64,000 bases of DNA from Mobula hypostoma. Its lineage: Eukaryota. The stretch's first letter is position 1. Every line of letters starts with the position of its first letter. The stretch lies in contig NC_086097.1 in the NCBI RefSeq assembly GCF_963921235.1, forward strand, positions 80,416,001 to 80,480,000, in the 5' to 3' direction. Below are positions 32,219-44,000 of this stretch, one piece after another. Position numbers and translations under genes: made by a program. The notes under the pieces were generated by a model. It saw only the letters and a program-made list of their open reading frames with translations. It made no database searches and had not been told where the DNA came from.

Positions 32219-35200
32219 CCATAAGACCATAAGATATGGAAGCAGAAGTAGGCCATTCAGCCCATTAAGTCTGCTCCACCATTCAATCATGGGCTGATCC
32301 AATTCTTCCAGTTATCCCCATTCCCCTGCTTTCACCCCATACCCCTTGATGCCCTGGCTAATCAAGAACCTATCTATCTCTGCCTTAAATACACCCAATC
32401 ACTTGGCCTCCAAAGCTGCTCGTGGTAACAGATTCCACAGACTTACCACCCTCTGACTAAAGTAATTTCTCTGCATCTCAGTTCTAAAAGGACATCCTTC
32501 AATCCTGAATTCGTGCTCTCTCGTCCTAGAATCCCCTACCATGGGAAATAAATTGACCATATCAAATCTGTTCAGGCCTTTTAACATTCAGAATATTTCT
32601 ATGAGATCCCCCCTCATTCTCCTGAACTCCAGGGAATACAGCCCAAGAGCTGCCAGACATTCCTCATATGGTAACTCTTTCATTCCTGGAATCAATTTCC
32701 TGAATCTTCTCTGAATCCTCTCCAATGTAAGTATATCTTTTCTAAAATAAGGAGCCCATAACTGCACACAATACTCCAAGTGTGGTCTCACGAGTGCCTT
32801 ATAGAACCTCAACATCACATCCCTGCTCTTATATTCTATACCTCTAGAAATGAATACCAACATTGCATTCGCCTTCTTCACAACCGACTCAACCTGGAGG
32901 TTAACCTTTAGGGCATCTTGCACAAGGACTCCCAAGTCCCTTTGTACCTCTGCATTTTGAATTCTCTCCCCATCTAAATAATAGTCTGCCCATTTATTTC
33001 TTCCATCAAAGTGCATGGCCATACAATTTCCAACGATGTATTTCATTGGCCACTTCTTTGCCCATTCCTTAAACTATCTAAGTCTCTCTGTTTCCTCAAC
33101 ACTATCCGCTCCTCCACTTATCTTTGTATCATTGGCAAATTTAGCCACAAATCCATTAATAGCATAGTCCGAATCACTGACATACATTGTAATAAGTAGT
33201 CCGACCCTGTGGAACTTCACTGGTAACCGGCAGCCAGCCAGAATAAAATCCCTTTATTCCCACTCTGTTTTCTGCTGACCAGCCAATGCTCCATCCACAC
33301 TAGTAACTTTCCTGTAATTCCATGGGCTCTTATCTTGCTAAGCAGCCTTATGTGCGGCATCTTGTCAAAGCTCTTCTGAAAATCCAAGTACACCACGTCT
33401 ACTGCATCTCCTTTGTCTATCCTACTTGTAATTTCCTCAAAAAATTGCAGTAGGTTTGTCAGGCAGGATTTTCCTTTCAGGAAACCATGCTGGCTTTGGC
33501 CTACCTTGTCATGTGCCTCCAGGTACTCTGTAATCTCATCCCTAACAATCAATTCCAACAACTTCCCAACCACTGACATCAGTCTAACAGGTCTATAGAT
33601 TCCGTTCTGCTGTCTCCCACCCTTCTTAAATAGCAGAGTAACATCTGCAATTTTATAATTTATACTTTATACTTTATTGTCGGCAAACAATTGATACTAG
33701 AACGTACAATCATCACAGCGATATTTGATTCTGCGCTTCCCGCTCCCTGGATTACAAAACAATAGTAAATATTAAAAATCTAAATTATAAATCATAAATA
33801 GAAAATAGGAAAATGGAAAGTTACGTTAGTGCAAAAAAACCGAGAGGCGGGTCTGGATATTTGGAGGGTACGGCCCAGATCCGGGTGGGGATCTGTTCAG
33901 CAGTCTTATCACAGTTGGAAAGAAGCTGTTCCCAAATCTGGTCGTATGAGTCTTCAAGCTCCTGAGCCTTCTCCCAGAGGGAAGAGGGACGAAAAGTGTG
34001 TTGGCTGGGTGGGTCATGTCCTTGATTATCCTGGCAGCACTGCTCCGACAGCATGCAGTGTAAAGTAAGTCCAAGGACGGAAGATTGGTTTGTGTGATGT
34101 GCTGTGCCATGTTCACGATCTTCTGCAGCTTCTTTCGGTCTTGGACAGGACAACTTCCATATCAGGTTGTGATGCATCCTAGAAGAATGCTTTCTACGGT
34201 GCATCTATAAAAATTAGTGAGGGTTTTAGGGGACAGGCCAAATTTCTTTAGTTTTCTCAAGAAGTAACGGCGCTTGTGGGCCTTCTTGGCAGTGAACTCT
34301 GCTTGGTTGGACCAAGTCAGGTCATTTGTGATATTGACCCCGAGGAACTTAAAGCTTTTGACCTGTTCCACTTGTGCACCACCGATGTAAATTGGGTGGC
34401 GTGGTCTACTACTCCTTCTGAAGTCAACAACCAATTCCTTCGTCTTGCTGACGTTGAGGGATAGGTTATTGTCTTCGCACCATGCCACCAGGTTCTTAAT
34501 TTCCTCTCTGTACTCAAACTCATCATTACCCAAGATACGGCCTGCAATTGTTGTGTCATCAGCAAACTTCTATATTGAGTTCGATGGAAACTTTCCAGTC
34601 ATCCAGTACAATGCTAGAATCTATCAAGGAGACTTATCCACCCTCAGACCATTAAGTTTCCTGAGCACTTTCTCCGTCATAATTGTCACTGCACAAACTT
34701 CACTTCCCTGAGCTCTTGAATGTCTGGTATACTGCAGACGTCTTCCACTGTGAAGACCGATGCAAAATACACATTCAGTTCCTCTGCCATCTCTGCACCT
34801 CTCATTGCAATATCTCCAGCGTCATTTTCTATTGGTCCTATATCTACTCTCGACTCTCTTTAACCTTTATATACTTAAAAAAAGCTTTTAAAATCCTCTT
34901 TGATATTAGCCACCAGCTTCCTTTCATAATTCATCTTTTCCTTCCTAATGACTATCTTAGTTTCTTTCTGCAAGTTTTTAAAAGCTCCCAATCCTTTATC
35001 TTCCTACTAGATCTGACTTCCTCATATGCCCTGTCTTTTGCTTTTACTTGGTCTCTGACCTTCACTTGTCAGCCACGGTAGTGTCCTTCTGCCCTTTAAA
35101 AATTTCTTCTTATTTGGAATATATCTGTCTTGCACTTCCCTCATTTTTCGCAGAAATTCTAGCCATTGCTGCTCTGCTGTCCTTCCTGTAAAAGTCTCTT

Positions 35201-35640: not shown

Positions 35641-35719
35641 GGGCAATTGTTCTCTTGTCTGGAGGAAAAGTGACATATTTGAAAAACTCTAACACAATTG
35701 TAATTTTTTTAATACACTA

Positions 35720-36458
35720 CGTAGCCCCCTGGTAAGCCTCAGGCTCGCTCAGCTCGCTTTTGTCTAGGGGAGCAGCCTGCAGCCCCACCACCCCGCCAAA
35801 CTGGGTAATCAAGTTTGTGTGGATGCTGTGTGATGTATCCCACCCCGCCAAATAACAGACACCATATGCGATTAAATGATTACACTTTATAGGTCTTACC
35901 GGAAGTATGTAATTAACAATGTTAAAATATAGAAGGGAAATAAAATAAAATATAAAAGGAAAATAAAAGGCGCCAAACTTATCAGAGTTCAACCACTTCG
36001 TGCACAACCGTTGGAGCTCAAGTAACGGAGTCTTCTTTCCACCATCCGATCTCCTCCGACCTCCTCGACCCGCCACCTGGGACCAACCACGGTAATCGAC
36101 CAGATGCTGCACATGAGTCTGTCTTCGTCTCCTCTCCTCGCCGAAGACCCTTGACCTCGGACTCCCGCTCAGGTTCGGTCCCACCGTCCAGGGTCACAGC
36201 ATCGCGTCTCCTCTCTCTGTCCCCATCGCGCCTTCTGCCTCAAAGCCCGCGAAAAATAGCTTACAGACACACAAGAAAGAATAACACCAATCCCAATTGA
36301 TTAGCAAATGAATACAATTCTTTTTATAACCCAAACAAGCTGCTAGTGAGAGAACTTTCTCAGCAGTTATTATTACAGAAAAGCCATTTTAATTACAACA
36401 TAACAAAGAAGCCATTTTTTTAGCCTTCGTGGTAACATAAAAGAAGAAACCCCTTACA
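35720..36458 (-). repeat. 3' LTR of the myosin-carrying Gypsy element
   Basis: Direct repeat of 38988-39701 with scattered substitutions and small indels. Confidence 0.92.
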
Positions 36459-36472
36459 CTCTTCCCCCCACC
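36459..36472 (-). promoter_or_regulatory. Polypurine tract
   Basis: Minus strand GGTGGGGGGAAGAG directly upstream of the 3' LTR. Confidence 0.85.
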
Positions 36473-36751
36473 AAATAAAGTCATGTCCTCATGACTTCTA
36501 AATAACTCGCCAACCACCCCTGCAGACACAAAAACCCAATCCAGGTACGAACAGTCACATTGCTCCCCAAACAGTAGTCCTTACGCCCAGTTCCACAGGC
36601 GCTACACAGGCCAACCTATCTGGGAGTTTCCTAATCCTCCGAGACCTCCATACCTCCTCACCTAAGCCCTTCGTGCAGGGACACTACCGGGGATAGCTCG
36701 GGTCTGCTTGCCAAATCCTCTCTCAAACTCTCACTCAAACCCCCACCGCAA

Positions 36752-38248
36752 CTAGGAGCCCCCTGTCCAGGGCCCTACCTCTTTTCCTTCAGTGTCCTGC
36801 TGTAACCCAGGCTGCCCACAGATAGCCCTCCCCACTACACCTGACTCAGTGGGAGAAGGGCCAAAAGTCTCTTCCTCAATCAAGGGGAAGTTAGCGAAAG
36901 GCAGCATGTACCACACATCCAGCACATCATCTTTCGAATCAGTATTCTTCCTCATTCCCTCGATCGGTAGCTGATGTTTGATTTTCTCCAGAATGAAGCA
37001 CTTAGCCTGGGCTGCCTCTGCAGCCTCTTCAGCCTCCTGCAGTCGAGACGTCAGCTTCTTCTCTGACTCCTCCATCTCTCGCCCCAGTCTCAGCAGTTCT
37101 GACTCACACTTCATGTCCGTCTCCATCAGGGACGCAATTACACCACCAGCTACTTCCAATCTGTTCTGGATTGATTTCTTGAGTTTCTGCTGATCCTTTT
37201 GAAGGTTGGTCATGGTGTTGTCTCTCTGGATTAATTCATCAGTAAATGACCGCAGTTTCGGATTGGAATTACATTTCCCTGTCTCCACTTTGACGAGCAT
37301 GAACTCCAGTTCTTCAATGGTTGTCCAGGGCTCCGGCACTTGTCTCACATCATCGTCCCCAAAGGCAAATCCAAACCCGAGGCGATCATCCACATACGCC
37401 AAAACTCCAAACACCTCCACATCCCCCATGGTCTTCCTCATGCCCCGCGGGAAGGTTGCAAGGGCTGCAGATATGCCCTGGGGCATCTTTTCGGATCGGA
37501 AGAATCCTAGGGGACCTATAACGGCTGTCTTCTCCTTGTCGGCCTCACTCATCAAGATCTGGCAACATCCACTCCTCAGATCCAACACATTAAACCACGT
37601 AGCACCACACAAACAGACCATCTTGTCTTCGGCCCTCAGGACCGTATTCTGGTCAATGACAGTGCGCCTGTTCAGAGTCCTATAATCCACACACACGCTG
37701 CCTACGTCTTCTACTGCTACAGGGGCCAGTCGCCGCGACCTCTCTCTCACTGAGGTATCTTCAGCGGTCAACTCCCCTCCCTCGTGGTATTTCGGAGCGT
37801 CTACTAAGAGGGTCTCACTCTCAGGTACTTCCCCCAGGCTGTACCATAATCGGTTCTCGTTTAAATTCGGCACCGGCCCAAGGCTGCTACACCCGTCCTC
37901 ACAAGCAGCTCGAAATGCTGGGTGCACAGACAATACCCCCATGAACTCCAGTGTCACTGACCAATAATCTTCTTCTGGATAATCACTGGCACTGGTACTC
38001 CAATTCTCCAGTGCCCTTAATGTTGTCAAGGGTAAATGCTTCAGAAACCAGTTGTAAAGCGAACTGTACAACAACTTGACCTGCGCCCCGGTGTTGAGGA
38101 TGGCTTTAGCATAGCTTCCATCTATCCGTAATGACACATGGGGGCGTGGTCCCTCTAAGCCTTCAGGAATAGGGTCTTTTCCTTTCGGAAGTTCCTTGGT
38201 ACATTGCTGGGAACATGCTCCCCCAGAGATCCCAAGCCGTTCCCCCAC
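36752..38248 (-). CDS. Chimeric pol-like ORF (498 aa): inactivated aspartic protease, truncated RT, myosin heavy-chain rod fragments, pol tail
   Basis: AILNTGAQV (DTG to NTG), [38 protein letters not shown], then aa 309-430 myosin-like ([16 protein letters not shown]). Expression and start codon unknown. Confidence 0.7.
36959..37324 (-). pseudogene. Captured sarcomeric myosin heavy-chain (class II) coiled-coil fragments, possibly MYH16-like
   Basis: Three blocks match myosin rod sequences as recalled: [15 protein letters not shown] ~ [40 protein letters not shown] ~ RLEEAGGATS..EAE(F/L)..[38 protein letters not shown] ~ [31 protein letters not shown]. Confidence 0.85.
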
Positions 38249-38986
38249 TGGGCCTCCACTAAGTTTCCCAACACCTCTCTGATCAGCTGAACAACTGAGG
38301 GAGGGGCTGATCCCCTTAAATGATCACCCTGGCACTGCAACCAATTTAGCTGCTCTCCTAGCCAGAGAAGATACACCTGACAGCTTTTCCCCAATCTCCT
38401 GACACAGGTATGGAAAGCCCCTCATGCACTGCATTTTACTTCCAGTCGAACCAGACGCATTTTCCCCCGCTTTCAGATAACTGGCAGCTGTCACTATGGG
38501 GTAATTGACCCTAACAGTTCTAACACCGTCACCAGCCCGCCTACTCAAACTTTCAACCAATCCCTGTCGCTGTCCCTCAGCTGAGCACTGCCACTCATCT
38601 AACAACCGAGAGATCTGCTCCGCCCACCTCTCGTACGCCTCCGCCCCTTTAGGGATGGACACTATCCCAAAAACCAGGCGGAGCCTGCCATAGCTGGAAC
38701 ATTGATTCACAGACACTACCTCCGAATCAGACCACTCTTTCCTCTCTCTCCTAACAGTATGGACAGCCCATGGTCCCGCCTCACCTGGCAGTCCCACCAC
38801 CAACTGGTCAGCGCTAGTCTGAACTTGAACAAAGACCTTTGTGGTAGTAAGTAATAAGCATAAGTAATGCAGCTTCCCACAGAGACACACATTACTAACT
38901 GCAATCCCACAGAGATATAGCAGCACTGATTTAAACAGGGCAATCACATAGCACACCACTGAATCAAATCTCGGACACAGCCCCAA
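38155..38986 (-). pseudogene. PNMA-like Gypsy gag (shortened, frameshifted)
   Basis: YGRLRLVFGIVSIPKGAEAYERWAEQ..LLDEWQCS..QRQGLVESL resembles the PNMA/Gypsy capsid motif. Split across ORFs 38324-38986 and 38155-38394. Confidence 0.75.
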
Positions 38987-38987
38987 A
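38964..38987 (-). promoter_or_regulatory. Primer-binding site, tRNA-Pro-like (degenerate)
   Basis: Minus strand TTTGGGGCTGTGTCCGAGATTTGA next to the 5' LTR, versus canonical Pro PBS TGGGGGCTCGTCCGGGAT(TTGA). Confidence 0.65.
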
Positions 38988-39701
38988 TGTAGCCCTCTGG
39001 TAAGCCTCAGGCTCGCTCAGCTCGCTTTCGACTAGGGGGAGCAGCCTTCGGCCCCGCCAAACTGGGTAATCAAGTTTGTGTGGGTGCTGTGTGATGTACC
39101 CCACCCCTCCAAATAACAGACAGTACAGCATATGCAATTAAATGATTACACTTTATAGATCTTACTGGAACTAAGTAATTAATAGAGATAAAATATAAAA
39201 GGAAAATAAAAGGCATCAAACTTATCAAAGTTCAACCACTTTGTGCACAAGCGTTGGAGTTCAAGTAACGGAGTCTTCTTTCCACCATTCGATCCCCTCT
39301 GACCCCCTCGACCCACCACCTGGGACCAACCACGGTAGTCGACCAGACGCTGCACATGAGTCTGTCTTCGTCTCCTCTCCTCGCCGAAGGCCCTGGGCCT
39401 TGGACTCCTGCTCAGGGTCGGTCCCGCCGCCCAGGGTCACAGCATCGCATCTCTGCTTTCTGTCCCCATCGCGCCTTCTGCCTCAAAGCCCGCGAACAGT
39501 AGCCTACAGACACACAAGAAAGAATAACACCTATCCCAATTGGTTAGCAAATGAATACAATTCTCTTTATAACCCAAACAAGCTGCTAGAGAGAGAACTT
39601 TCTCAGCAGTTATTATTACAGAAAAGCGAATTGCATTATAACATAACAAAGAAGCCATTTTATTAACCTTCGCAGTAACATAAAAGAAGAAACCCCTTAC
39701 A
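38988..39701 (-). repeat. 5' LTR of the myosin-carrying Gypsy element
   Basis: TG...CA ends; direct repeat of 35720-36458. Confidence 0.92.
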
Positions 39702-40166
39702 ACTAGAACAGGCGTTATGATCATGGGTTAATATCTCTTGATATTGTATATTTTCACCTCATTTCAATCCTCTATCTGAATATTTGAAAGGGTATTTCCA
39801 TTGTACCATTAATCACACAGAATCTGCCTACCAAATCTTTACTTATCCTTGTATTCGATTTAGTTAATTAACAATTGACTAAAACCTTTAGCTGATATTA
39901 TAATTCCTGTCCTTGAATTGGAAGCCATGAGGGAAACCTAATAATGGGCTTCCCCTGCATCATTCAGACGATATTGGCAGACTGTGAATACATATAAAGT
40001 AAATTTAATATCATAGTATGCATATATGTCACCATATACCACTTTAGGTTCATTTCCTTGTAGGCATTTACTGGAAAATAAAGAAATGCAATAGAATTTA
40101 TTAAAAATTACAAAAAGGCAAAAACTGACAAGCAACCAATGTACAAAGGAAGACAAATCGTGCAAA

Positions 40167-41060
40167 TTTTTTTTTATTTCAAAATATACTTTATTCAAAA
40201 ATAAATATATACAATAAACCATTCAATAACTTTTCATCCTTTACATACGTTTCCATTATACTCGGTACATATCTGTATTTATAGCCACCCACGTGGCACT
40301 CCAGTAGTTCAGCTTAGCATATCATTGTTGAGGGGTATACTCCTCGCCCACCGACCCCTCCCACTCCCACAGGTGGAGAAACCTATACTGTGGTCCTTCC
40401 CCACCGGGCCCTTGCGGTGGCTGCACCAAGTTTCAGTGCGTCCCTCAGCACGTACTCCTGCAGCCGAGAATGTGCCAGTCGGCAGCATTCTCCCACGGAC
40501 ATCTCCATGTGCTGGTAGATCATCAAGTTTCGGGCCGACCAAAGAGCGTCTTTCACCGAGTTGATGATCTGCCAGCAGCACCGGATGTTTGTCTCCGTGT
40601 GCGTCCCCGGGAACAGCCCGTAGATCAGAGAGTCCTCTGTTACGCAGCTGCTGGGGATAAAACGTGACACTAGCCCGTCCATCCTCCTCCACACCCTCTT
40701 TGCGAACTGGCGGTGTGCAAAGAGGTGGGTCACAGACTCCTCCTTACTGCAGTCCTCCCGTGGGCAGTGGGGTGCGGAGACGACGTTCCGGGCGTACAGG
40801 AGGGCTCTGACTGGGAGGCCCCTCTCACTGCCAGCCAGGCGAGGTCTTGGTGCCTGTTGGTTAGATCTGGCGATGAGGCATTTTGCCAGATGAACTGGAC
40901 AGTCTGCTCAGGGAACCACCCCACTGTGTCCATCACGTCCTTCTCCTGCAGTGCCTGCAGGACACTACGTGCCGACCACTGCCTGATGGCCCTGTGGTCA
41001 AAGGCGTTCTCCTGGAAGAACTTTGCTACGTAGGACAGGTATGCCGGCAACGACCATAAC
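40167..41060 (-). mobile_element. Tx1-clade LINE 3' end, inserted in an older Rex1-type tail repeat (~39990-41320)
   Basis: WQNASSPDLTNRHQDLAWLAVRGA, CPREDC..ESVTHLF, CWQIINSVKDALWSARNL. Poly-A tail, seen as a T-run at 40167. Confidence 0.75.
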
Positions 41061-44000
41061 ACAAAAGAAGTAAATAAATAATACTGAGAGTATGTGCTGT
41101 AGAGTGATTGAAAGTAAGTCTATAGGTTGTGGAGTCACTTCAGCATTAAGGTGAATGAAGTTATCCAGACTGATTCAGGAACCTGATGGTTGAAGGGTAA
41201 TGTTTCTGGACTTAAGGCTCCTTTACTGCCTGCCTGATGGTAGAAATGAGAACAGAGCATGGCCTGGATAATGGAGGGTCTTGATGACGGATGCTGCTTT
41301 CTTGTGACAGCTCTCCATGTAAATTTGCTCACAAACAGATTGGACAACCAAAGCAGTTTGGATTCCACTGAAAAGTCTTCAACCTAAAGAACTAACTCTC
41401 TTTCCACTTCTGCAGGTATCACCGGACCTGCTGAACATCTCCAGCATTGTTTGATTGCACTTTCAAATTTCAAGCTTCTGCAGTTCTTTAATGTTCAAGC
41501 CAAGCCTTGATATCACATATTAAGAAGCTGCATTCATGAAATTCCAGGAAGGAGGTAGGTTAATTGGGAAGCAAAGAGTAATTAAGAGGTAGGAATAAAG
41601 TAGGATGTTGAGCAAGTACTCTGGAACTGCAATTTTTGTCAGGCATAGATGCACATTCCACATTCAGGCATGCATTTAACAGAAGGCTGTGTTCTGGGCA
41701 AACATTTGCAAAACAGACCTCAACTACCATTAGACACCTGACTTACCAAGATCCTGCAGCAGGTTTGAGCGCTTGGTTTCTCATTTGTTGCCTGCAATAA
41801 TACAAAGCACCTTCCCATATAGCATGGAAAAGTCAGATTTTTAACTAACACTGAAGAAATTCAGTTAAAGCCTGTTTCAGCGTTTATGACAATAAACAAA
41901 CCTAATCTAGTCTATTCAAACTTTGAACATTTGGTAGAACTTTACACAATCAGTGTTGAAAGCCATTTGATGCCACTGTAAAAGCCCGATATTCTCCAAG
42001 CAATGGTCTCAGTATATCTGATTTGAAAATCTTTTTATGTTGGCATACAAATTTAGTGATAAAAAAAATCCACTTCAGAACACCTAAAATCATTCCACTA
42101 TCTGGTGGCACTTCTGAGTTTGTCTCAGTTGAATGCTTCAATGCATATGCGGTTTCTGTACCAAATTAAAACTGTGATCATAAACTGTAAATCTGATCGT
42201 CAGACACCTCTTCCAGTAAATGACGACACACATTTGTCTCATCTTCGTTTTACACTAGATGCTGCCAGCATCCGTAATATGGCACAGATAAGAAGGTGAG
42301 ATGAAAAGCACTATCACACTTGTGTGTGACTTCAGAAATATTGTCTGTATAGCTATCAGGTTTTTGAAAGTTGGTGTAAGAGCTGGGCGGCAAGGAGCAG
42401 AAAAGAACAATAAAATGCACATTCAGAATCCATTCCTTTGAGTCATTGCTTGATGTGCTTTGCCTTTAAGGATATGTGATGTGTAGCCTCAAAATGTAAA
42501 TTAACTGCTTAGAATTCAAGAGAGCAGAAGCACACTAGGATAAATAAGGTGCACTAATGCTGCATGCTACTGCAATCACTTTGCCATTGCATTCAACTGT
42601 AAACAAGATATCCTAAATGACAGTGTATTCATTAATTTACTAGCAGCAGCTTGTGCAAGGTTTCATAGCCTGGCAAGCTTTTGTGTTTAGGACCTGATAT
42701 ACTTGCATCTGCAAGCAGTTCATGTCCATTCAAAGATACTTCTCACTGTAACCATTTATCTGTTACTGCCTTTTTAAATCTTATCAACTCTACCCGTATT
42801 AAAAAAAACACAAATCCGTGCAGGCTGCCAATATTTGGTATTAGATTCCTTTGAGCATATTCATAACATGGATAACCAACATAAATATGTCACACTGTCA
42901 TTAAACTATAGGCATTGAAAAATGAAGTCAGCTTCTCAGGAAGATATTTCTTCATGTTCAGTTCTTGGTTAACAAGAAACCATAAAATAGGTAATTGAAA
43001 TAAGAAAACTCAGCATTTAATCTTCACATATTACGCTCGATGTCATTATAATATGTGGATAGCTGAACAGACCATCTTGAAGACACGAGAGACTGCAATT
43101 GCTGGAAACTGGAGCAACAGAAGATCTGGTGGAACTCAGTGGGTTGAGCAGCATCTGTGGGAGGAAAGGGTTTGTAAAGGTTTGAGTTGAAATGCTGCAC
43201 CGGGAAGACCATCGTTAAAGCATGTCCGAGAGTCACAGAGAAGTAGGATGGAAACAGGTCCTTTCGACCAACTGGTTGATGCAGACCACAGCATCCTCAC
43301 TGCTAGTCCCAGCTGCCTATGTTCAGCCCGTAACTCAGCAAACCTTTCCTTCATTGTACCTACCCAAATGCTTTTTAAACGGTGCAGTTGTATCCACCTC
43401 CGTGACTTCCTCTGGCAGCTCACTCCAGGTACTCACTACCATCTGTGTGAAGAAGTTACCTCTCAGATCTCTTTTAAATCTCTACCCTGCTTTCTTGCAG
43501 CTGTGCCCTCCTTAGGAAAAAGATTATGACTGCCCACCTTGTCCATGCACCTCATGATTAGCCATAAACTTCTATGAGGTCACCTCTCATTTTCCTATGT
43601 TCCAAGCAATAAAAATGCAGCATAGCCAAGCTTTCCCTATAACTCAGGCCCTCTAGTCCAGGCAGCATTTTCATAAATCTCTTCTGCACCTTCTTATAGC
43701 AGGGTGACCAGAAATGTACACAATGGGGCTTCCGCCTGCAGCTCGATGGAGTAATACATAAATTTTTCGGCTGCCTTTAATTCCTCCTTTTCCCCAGTTT
43801 AAACCTTGAATTTTTAACTTTTATTTCTTGGAGCTTAGAGGGAAATAGTTGTCATTATGTCATATCCTTTAAGAAGTGGAAAGCAGCCTTCTGAATCCAG
43901 CAATGGAAAGCAAAAAACTTTGAAAGAAAAATCGGAAGATATGCCTGTCTGGGCTGAGCGTTTGGAACGTGCGTTGATGGCTCTCGACAACAAAATAGAC

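Follow-up and report, generated by a model that had tools for sequence, protein, structure and literature searches.

Acute transforming retroviruses capture cDNA of cellular oncogenes and carry the spliced sequence in frame with remnants of gag and pol, and they are defective and depend on a helper. LTR-mediated retroposition has been reported from flies, mosquito, zebrafish, chicken and mammals (Tan et al. 2016, Genome Res 26:1663, PMC5131818). In the cases set out in that paper, partial intron-less copies of mRNAs take the place of a portion of the ORFs inside LTR elements, the switch points show microsimilarity, multi-switch chimeras (with more than two switches) occur, and the chimeras can be re-mobilised as non-autonomous elements. 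Plant LTR elements with captured gene fragments, namely maize Bs1 and the rice retrocopies, are cited in the same source (PMC5131818).

The element considered here lies on the reverse strand of the window, the 64,000-nucleotide stretch of Mobula hypostoma DNA that was analysed. It is very likely a non-autonomous Ty3/gypsy element with an in-frame fragment of host myosin cDNA, a fragment that was probably derived from mRNA and probably shortened twice at direct repeats later on, before the element was amplified. A sequence-only reading of the same stretch had described the insert as an in-frame mosaic of three non-contiguous, intron-less segments of the myosin rod; that observation is confirmed, and its interpretation by way of a spliced donor is largely supported by the sequence comparisons below. 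No published description of this myosin-carrying element was found in literature searches.

Anatomy of the element

The element is 3,982 bp long (35720-39701; this and all other window features given below are on the reverse strand) and is flanked by a target-site duplication, TAGT, with its upstream copy at 39702-39705 and its downstream copy at 35716-35719, the end alignment placing the same four nucleotides at the outer edge of both LTRs. The LTRs were delimited from direct repeats and LTR alignment: the 5' LTR (714 bp, 38988-39701) starts with TGTAAGGGG and ends with GGGCTACA, the 3' LTR (739 bp) occupies 35720-36458, and the two are 91.7% identical (649 matches and 59 mismatches over 708 aligned positions; JC distance 0.088). 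A candidate primer-binding site that begins with TTTGGGGCTGTG follows the 5' LTR, and a polypurine tract (GGTGGGGGGAAGAG, 36459-36472), read directly from the sequence, abuts the 3' LTR.

The first coding part is a gag remnant of the PNMA type (38324-38987; Pfam PNMA PF14893, E 1.6e-12), ended by a single in-frame stop at 38324-38326 right after which the pol frame begins, so that the two frames abut in the ORF list. This second open frame (36752-38323) has 523 codons and contains the myosin insert. Its upstream portion is a remnant of protease and reverse transcriptase (37328-38323) that extends through YVDD and about 20 further residues, carries internal in-frame deletions, and has the protease motif NTG, not DTG; RVT_1 matches it with E 1.7e-6, short of the Pfam cut-off. 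Among long sequences, those nearest to it are polyproteins of autonomous Ty3/gypsy elements, in which RVT_1, RT_RNaseH and rve domains are present. In BLASTP comparison with the autonomous stingray gypsy polyprotein P0129, identity is 44% over RT and 44% over PR, and relative to P0129 the window frame retains PR and RT only to shortly past YVDD, with internal gaps. Downstream the frame closes with the C-terminal tail of the element's own pol (36752-36949, to the stop codon), recognised by tblastn against autonomous copies in the same genome: the 66 residues that follow the myosin insert correspond to the pol C-terminal end, with 45-58% identity to the sequence located 3' of the integrase in those copies. 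The myosin sequence thus sits between the RT remnant and the pol tail, in frame at both ends, and in the window copy it replaces most of RNase H and all of integrase. Since this copy has no integrase, and its PR and RT are broken, it is non-autonomous. The LTRs, the target-site duplication and the polypurine tract, together with the gag-PR-RT-RNase H-IN order of the autonomous relatives, are those of Ty3/gypsy elements (Metaviridae).

The autonomous gypsy family is abundant in the same genome, where a first look gave 10,216 integrase candidates. A piece of 93 residues from the integrase of a stingray gypsy polyprotein is 96-97% identical to many same-genome copies (loci L071-L080), some of which have frames of more than 1,000 codons; for a transposon common to different ray families this identity is strikingly high, and it suggests that the rate is slow, that activity is recent or that the spread was horizontal. 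The surroundings of the window element also hold other open frames. Abutting frames at 32588-34569 contain non-LTR RT-like sequence (..FADDTTIAGRI..) and form a LINE remnant beside the element, and overlapping long open frames at 40309-41119, just upstream of the 5' LTR, are possibly the remnant of another retroelement.

The myosin insert and its donor gene

Translation of the reverse strand at 36959-37324 agrees exactly with the protein that had been quoted in the earlier reading. When the insert was searched against PDB chains with phmmer, it matched human MYH7 with E 2.9e-7 and an MYH7(1361-1425) construct with E 4.2e-9, three stretches of the query aligning to human cardiac MYH7 at about 954-1005, 1135-1182 and 1372-1422; a longer sister form of the insert (form A, described below) gave E 5.4e-16 against MYH7. 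On the 122 residues of the insert Pfam did not call Myosin_tail_1 (PF01576) at E up to 1, and gave weak coiled-coil families instead. Sequence comparison establishes without Pfam that the insert descended from a myosin gene, of which it is to be regarded as a fragment rather than as a myosin.

In a sliding comparison with the batoid fast-muscle myosin P0067 the insert shows constant offsets of 950, 1093 and 1301. The three blocks are therefore collinear, in the native myosin order that had been claimed for them, and the separations, which had been put at roughly 140 and 200 residues, measure 143 and 208 in P0067 numbering. The limits of the blocks required some revision. The join between blocks 2 and 3 (37072-37067) agrees with the position originally given (37066/37067), but the outer limits of the insert are 37327-36950 and not 37324-36959, and the join between blocks 1 and 2, which had been put at 37180/37181, is actually at 37162-37152, so that KKSIQNRLE belongs to block 1. 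Two additional blocks were entertained and ruled out: one at offset 1168 (NLQKDQQKL versus NLQRVKQKL), the stretch being donor exon b, and one after the insert, compared with myosin 1440-1455, the sequence from KNTDS on being the pol C-terminus.

The same genome contains the donor, a muscle-type class II myosin heavy-chain paralog (G000:C68:14,524,969-14,737,159; loci L087-L116) whose rod exons follow one another in collinear order along more than 212 kb of the C68 plus strand. Every exon border mapped has AG/GT, and the joined exons give an open frame. Because the locus contains rod parts present in no element form, it is a gene rather than a row of fragments of the element. It was reached through the electric-ray protein P0260, the lead that came from a whole-library HMMER search in which nearly all of the 35 hits were element-borne ORFs of myliobatiform rays; P0260 led to forms D and E of the element and to two exon-sized matches at C68:14.61 Mb. 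Ranking of candidate donors among 105 sarcomeric myosins was uninformative. The fast-muscle cluster (C68:15.3-15.9 Mb) and a gene on C2 were rejected as donors, with only 30-34% amino-acid and 49-69% nucleotide identity, and the reading that the capture is extremely old, which came from comparison with these wrong paralogs, was abandoned.

Other myosin sequences of this genome may be recorded here. The compact fast-muscle myosin cluster, in which one whole gene takes up about 23 kb, has the donor some 0.6 Mb upstream of it. Between C68:15.31 and 15.89 Mb there are at least 8 matches to one large rod exon (Pfam positions about 269-403), roughly 30-210 kb apart, and this region is a tandem cluster of sarcomeric myosin genes. 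Elsewhere, C18:48745314-48746731, C50:30689110-30689772, C21:138691427-138692201 and others are intron-less multi-exon matches to the myosin tail with in-frame stops; they look like processed pseudogenes of non-muscle-type myosins, unrelated to the element.

Summed over local alignments, and with five bases of exon i left out, 339 of 390 nt of the insert (87%) are identical to donor exons, and the insert is made of parts of seven of these, a, b, c, g, h, i and j. In the direction of the element it starts with the last 57 nt of exon a (37271-37327, ending in GTNIEELESTLVKVETEKQ; 57/67 identical, with an ambiguous lead-in included), passes through the whole of exon b (105 nt, 37166-37270; 89/105 ungapped, over exon positions 1-105), and enters the first 13-14 nt of exon c (37152-37165; 13/13 for 37165-37153), which contain the first internal join, J1. 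The 3' end of exon g follows (..EEAGGVTASQ, 37127-37151; 31/34 nt for 37162-37129), and then the first 60 nt of exon h (IEMNKKRESELLRLRRELEE, 37067-37126; 51/60), inside which lies the second internal join, J2/3. The last 5 nt of exon i (37062-37066) match at 3 of 5 positions, the gene having TCCAA and the insert TCAGA; their assignment is supported by ..EES-x-KKL.., which has the same length and frame as ..EESKKKL.. in the spliced donor. The insert ends with the first ~112 nt of exon j (36950-37061; 98/111), and one 21-residue stretch of this piece is identical in protein to the donor.

Four exon-exon junctions are crossed exactly, a/b at 37271/37270, b/c at 37166/37165, g/h at 37127/37126 and i/j at 37062/37061, and no intron sequence was found at any of these four in the window copy. 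The corresponding donor introns measure 38,885, 19,393, 2,681 and 24,248 nt, 85 kb together. Capture of the gene's genomic DNA is therefore excluded. The spliced mRNA donor that had been proposed on the evidence of block 1 is thereby supported for blocks 1, 2 and 3 alike, all of which cross exon junctions without the donor's introns of 2.7-38.9 kb. None of the blocks is confined to a single exon, since block 1 runs from the last part of exon a through the whole of exon b into 13 nt of exon c, while g/h is spanned by block 2 and i/j by block 3, and they are not contiguous in the donor, where 429 nt of cDNA are skipped and then about 208 codons (paralog numbering). The proposal itself had referred to block 1 crossing ENK/VKNL, taken for an exon junction as in human MYH7, with no intron. 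The mapped exon junctions show that this one, at 973/974, belongs to the fast-muscle paralogs; the donor's own first junction, ..EKQ/NSEQK.., is located five codons upstream of ENK/VKNL and still within block 1.

Joins, sister subfamilies and constraint

J1 lies at an 11-nt repeat, AGATTGGAAGA (37162-37152), that occurs both in exon c (positions 4-14) and in exon g (positions 52-62) and is flanked by mismatches on both sides; the donor cDNA has lost 429 nt here, or 143 codons. Present-day copies of the long forms A and B have a right-hand repeat that has drifted, so that 7 nt of repeat (TGGAAGA) are left at the flanks of J1, placed 276 nt apart, and these flanks are intact in 9 of 12 copies in one sample of the two forms and in 5 of 7 in another. 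When random in-frame deletions of 90-417 nt were made in the same sequences, microhomology of at least 7 nt occurred in 0.1% of 77,000 trials. J2/3 lies at GAGGAG (6 nt, ELEE motif; 37072-37067), where exon h positions 55-60 equal exon i positions 187-192, and a wider motif, GAG-TTG/CTT-GAGGAG (..ELEE..), matches at 10 of 12 nt; upstream of it the insert reads exon h (..RE-L/M-EE), and downstream exon i and exon j (S-x-KKL). The loss at J2/3 is about 208 codons, a figure that comes from the numbering of paralog P0067 and not from that of the donor itself. The shared LEEA-like motif that had been noticed at the junction of blocks 2 and 3 is thus ELEE(A/S), with GAGGAG as the exact microhomology. 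Template switching by RT at microhomology, which had been suggested on the strength of that motif, fits the joins but is indistinguishable from microhomology-mediated DNA deletion in a master copy.

Both non-contiguous joins fall inside exons, and at J1 and J2/3 there is no GT after the left break and no AG before the right break, which argues against aberrant splicing. No copy was found to retain any of the donor sequence that follows position 60 of exon h and precedes position 187 of exon i, so that J2/3 may be either a later deletion or part of the capture. The outer fusions are less clear-cut. J0, from RT to myosin, is located in the window copy at GGG/TGG (37327-37325) and is a secondary deletion at GGG, as comparison with sister form A reveals a loss of 237 nt at this point. 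The original 5' fusion, of an RNase H fragment to myosin, has no clear microhomology in today's copies, and the 3' fusion (..IEVEE of myosin, then K-N/R-..T-D/S-S of pol) has no obvious shared bases in them. In these copies, then, it is the internal joins alone that display the signature of template switching.

A genome search with the 366-nt short form gave 836 first-look candidates, which is not a curated count. All 40 candidates scored are 363-366 nt long and 90-92% identical, and since they span the full length of the query they share both internal joins. Among 12 loci that were fetched, 7 passed a fuzzy pattern match, every one of these with the same joins; the other 5 failed the patterns. 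The mosaic is a trait of the family and not a local accident. Copies number in the hundreds and are dispersed over many contigs, the window copy has its 4-bp target-site duplication, and the element has gone through further rounds of transposition as a non-autonomous element.

Sister copies with longer myosin inserts, for which the sequence-only reading had proposed a search as deletion intermediates, exist at high copy number in the same genome, and also in stingrays; among annotated ORFs, five that come from devil rays and a stingray show the same fusion with longer myosin parts. Forms A and B have about 92 extra codons between blocks 1 and 2. Form A aligns with 151 residues of myosin without a gap, and it too crosses further exon junctions at which no intron is present. 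The long segment shared by A and B gave 706 first-look candidates (150 scored), and the 5' myosin segment 735 (150 scored). Forms D and E are rarer (132 candidates, 26 matches). Form D is 90-97% identical in nucleotide sequence to donor exons a-e and j, also crosses c/d, d/e and e/f, and has a different join, without block 2. J2/3 is common to the stingray form and to every ray form that has block 2. What had been taken for an RT extension of forms A and B is actually an RNase H fragment (P0129 residues 1161-1195). Each form also has losses of its own: form C, to which the window copy belongs, is without 237 nt where RT meets myosin and without a further 276 nt within the insert, form B is without 120 nt, and A and B are without 9 nt that C and the stingray copies retain and without 78 nt of RT. 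Because each subfamily has its own deletions, no present form is the parent of another, and all descend from a fuller ancestor.

Element-borne ORFs have also entered public ray annotations (P0126, P0127, P0250, P0253-P0257 and P0283), where they are recorded as "myosin-16-like", "putative uncharacterized protein MYH16" and "myosin heavy chain, striated muscle-like", and further as "transmembrane protein 192 isoform X1" (TMEM192) and "SDHAF3 isoform X1". These names are likely misannotations caused by the myosin-carrying gypsy family, which would thus pollute the gene annotation of ray genomes.

No evidence was found that the myosin piece is functional. The heptad register, whose preservation the sequence-only reading had contemplated, is not kept, 143 and 208 leaving remainders of 3 and 5 on division by 7, and the continuous heptad and 28-residue register that characterises the myosin rod is absent from the insert. 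Nei-Gojobori dN/dS for the myosin part is 0.57-0.70 in frame and 0.40-1.07 in the two wrong frames, in a test biased by the picking of copies by similarity; the in-frame values lie inside the wrong-frame range, so no codon-level constraint is detectable. All five family-level deletions measured (237, 276, 120, 78 and 9 nt) are multiples of three, which is the only hint of constraint, and some copies have frames of up to about 830 codons that run from gag through the insert. That the coiled-coil is no mere passenger, the open gag-PR-RT-myosin-pol-tail frame having been kept through at least five independent family-level deletions, seems improbable; if it were so, a Gag fusion with a borrowed coiled-coil would be of help to the defective element in entering its helper's particles or in exploiting them. 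A functional role of the myosin piece is unlikely, and the piece would be a passenger.

Origin of the insert and comparison with known systems

The proposed course of events is that RT, working within a virus-like particle, changed templates between the RNA of the element and the mRNA of myosin, by which the fragment would have entered the element. Later internal deletions would have arisen likewise by RT switching, not in DNA. The internal shortening at short direct repeats probably preceded the multiplication of the family, for which the abundant autonomous gypsy family of the same genome may have supplied the enzymes.

That the likeness to myosin is merely a product of coiled-coil composition, arising by chance, has practically no probability: the weak coiled-coil families that Pfam gives on the 122 residues in place of Myosin_tail_1 would agree with it, but it is already refuted by the 87% nucleotide identity to seven collinear exons of one gene, and the protein E-values of 5.4e-16 (sister form A) and 2.9e-7 (insert) speak against it as well. 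That the donor transcript had skipped exons or been aberrantly spliced before it was captured is very unlikely. Whole exons are indeed skipped, d, e and f in the case of J1 and several in that of J2/3; however, the location of both joins inside exons, the lack of GT after the left or AG before the right break, and the continued presence of exons c-f in sister forms are not what such splicing would leave.

Two further alternatives concern the molecule that was copied or cut. The element might have acquired the myosin sequence as DNA, the source being a processed pseudogene (retrocopy) of the myosin gene that already existed and not an mRNA copied in a particle, and the end product would look identical; intron-less myosin retrocopies do occur in this genome, one example being G000:C18:48745314-48746731, which covers Pfam positions 514-993 in one piece with stops. 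The retrocopies seen are nevertheless of non-muscle type, no free retrocopy of the donor paralog was present among the 26 matches of the search for forms D and E, and the in-frame fusion at both ends, inside pol, fits the replacement during reverse transcription that is described for LTR-mediated retroposition in PMC5131818, so that this origin appears decidedly improbable. Rather more probability, though still well on the unlikely side, attaches to the possibility that the two joins are genomic deletions in a master copy, produced by replication slippage or microhomology-mediated end joining instead of RT switches. Short direct repeats at deletion ends mark such DNA-level processes too, and each join, being fixed throughout entire subfamilies, arose a single time; against this, the copying lineages contain many further deletions (the same 237, 276, 120, 78 and 9 nt), which are typical of error-prone reverse transcription, though not decisive.

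With capture from mRNA and subsequent shortening as the preferred reading, the family would constitute a natural vertebrate record of an LTR retrotransposon taking up a spliced mRNA and then whittling it down. Donor, intermediate subfamilies and end product are found in one genome, with breakpoints resolved to the base, and it is unusually plain that the origin was spliced, given donor introns of 2.7 to 39 kb. The kind of event, LTR-mediated retroposition, is already known; the present family is a new member of it that is well documented and has an unusually high copy number.

The element resembles acute transforming retroviruses in that spliced host sequence is fused in frame to gag/pol remnants in a defective element that needs a helper. 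It differs from them in being a Ty3/gypsy element without env that carries a fragment of a structural rod without evident activity, and in its germ-line transmission and intragenomic amplification. With the plant captures, as they are presented in PMC5131818, it shares the non-autonomous LTR element, the fragments of host cDNA and the helper-dependent multiplication, whereas here the host is a vertebrate, there is one donor gene, and the deletions form an in-frame series. The closest likeness is to the chimeras of Tan et al. (2016), in which, too, a host insert replaces part of an LTR-element ORF and is intron-less though its parent has introns (PMC5131818). Within the account given in that paper (PMC5131818), however, the cases are young and of single or low copy number, whereas the myosin-carrying family has hundreds of copies per subfamily and several subfamilies, with the same junctions found also in stingray ORFs. 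Further points of difference from the cases described there are that here the fragment is in frame with gag-pol, that microhomology is found at the internal joins and not clearly at the outer fusions, and that a series of deletion derivatives stands beside an identified donor with giant introns (PMC5131818).
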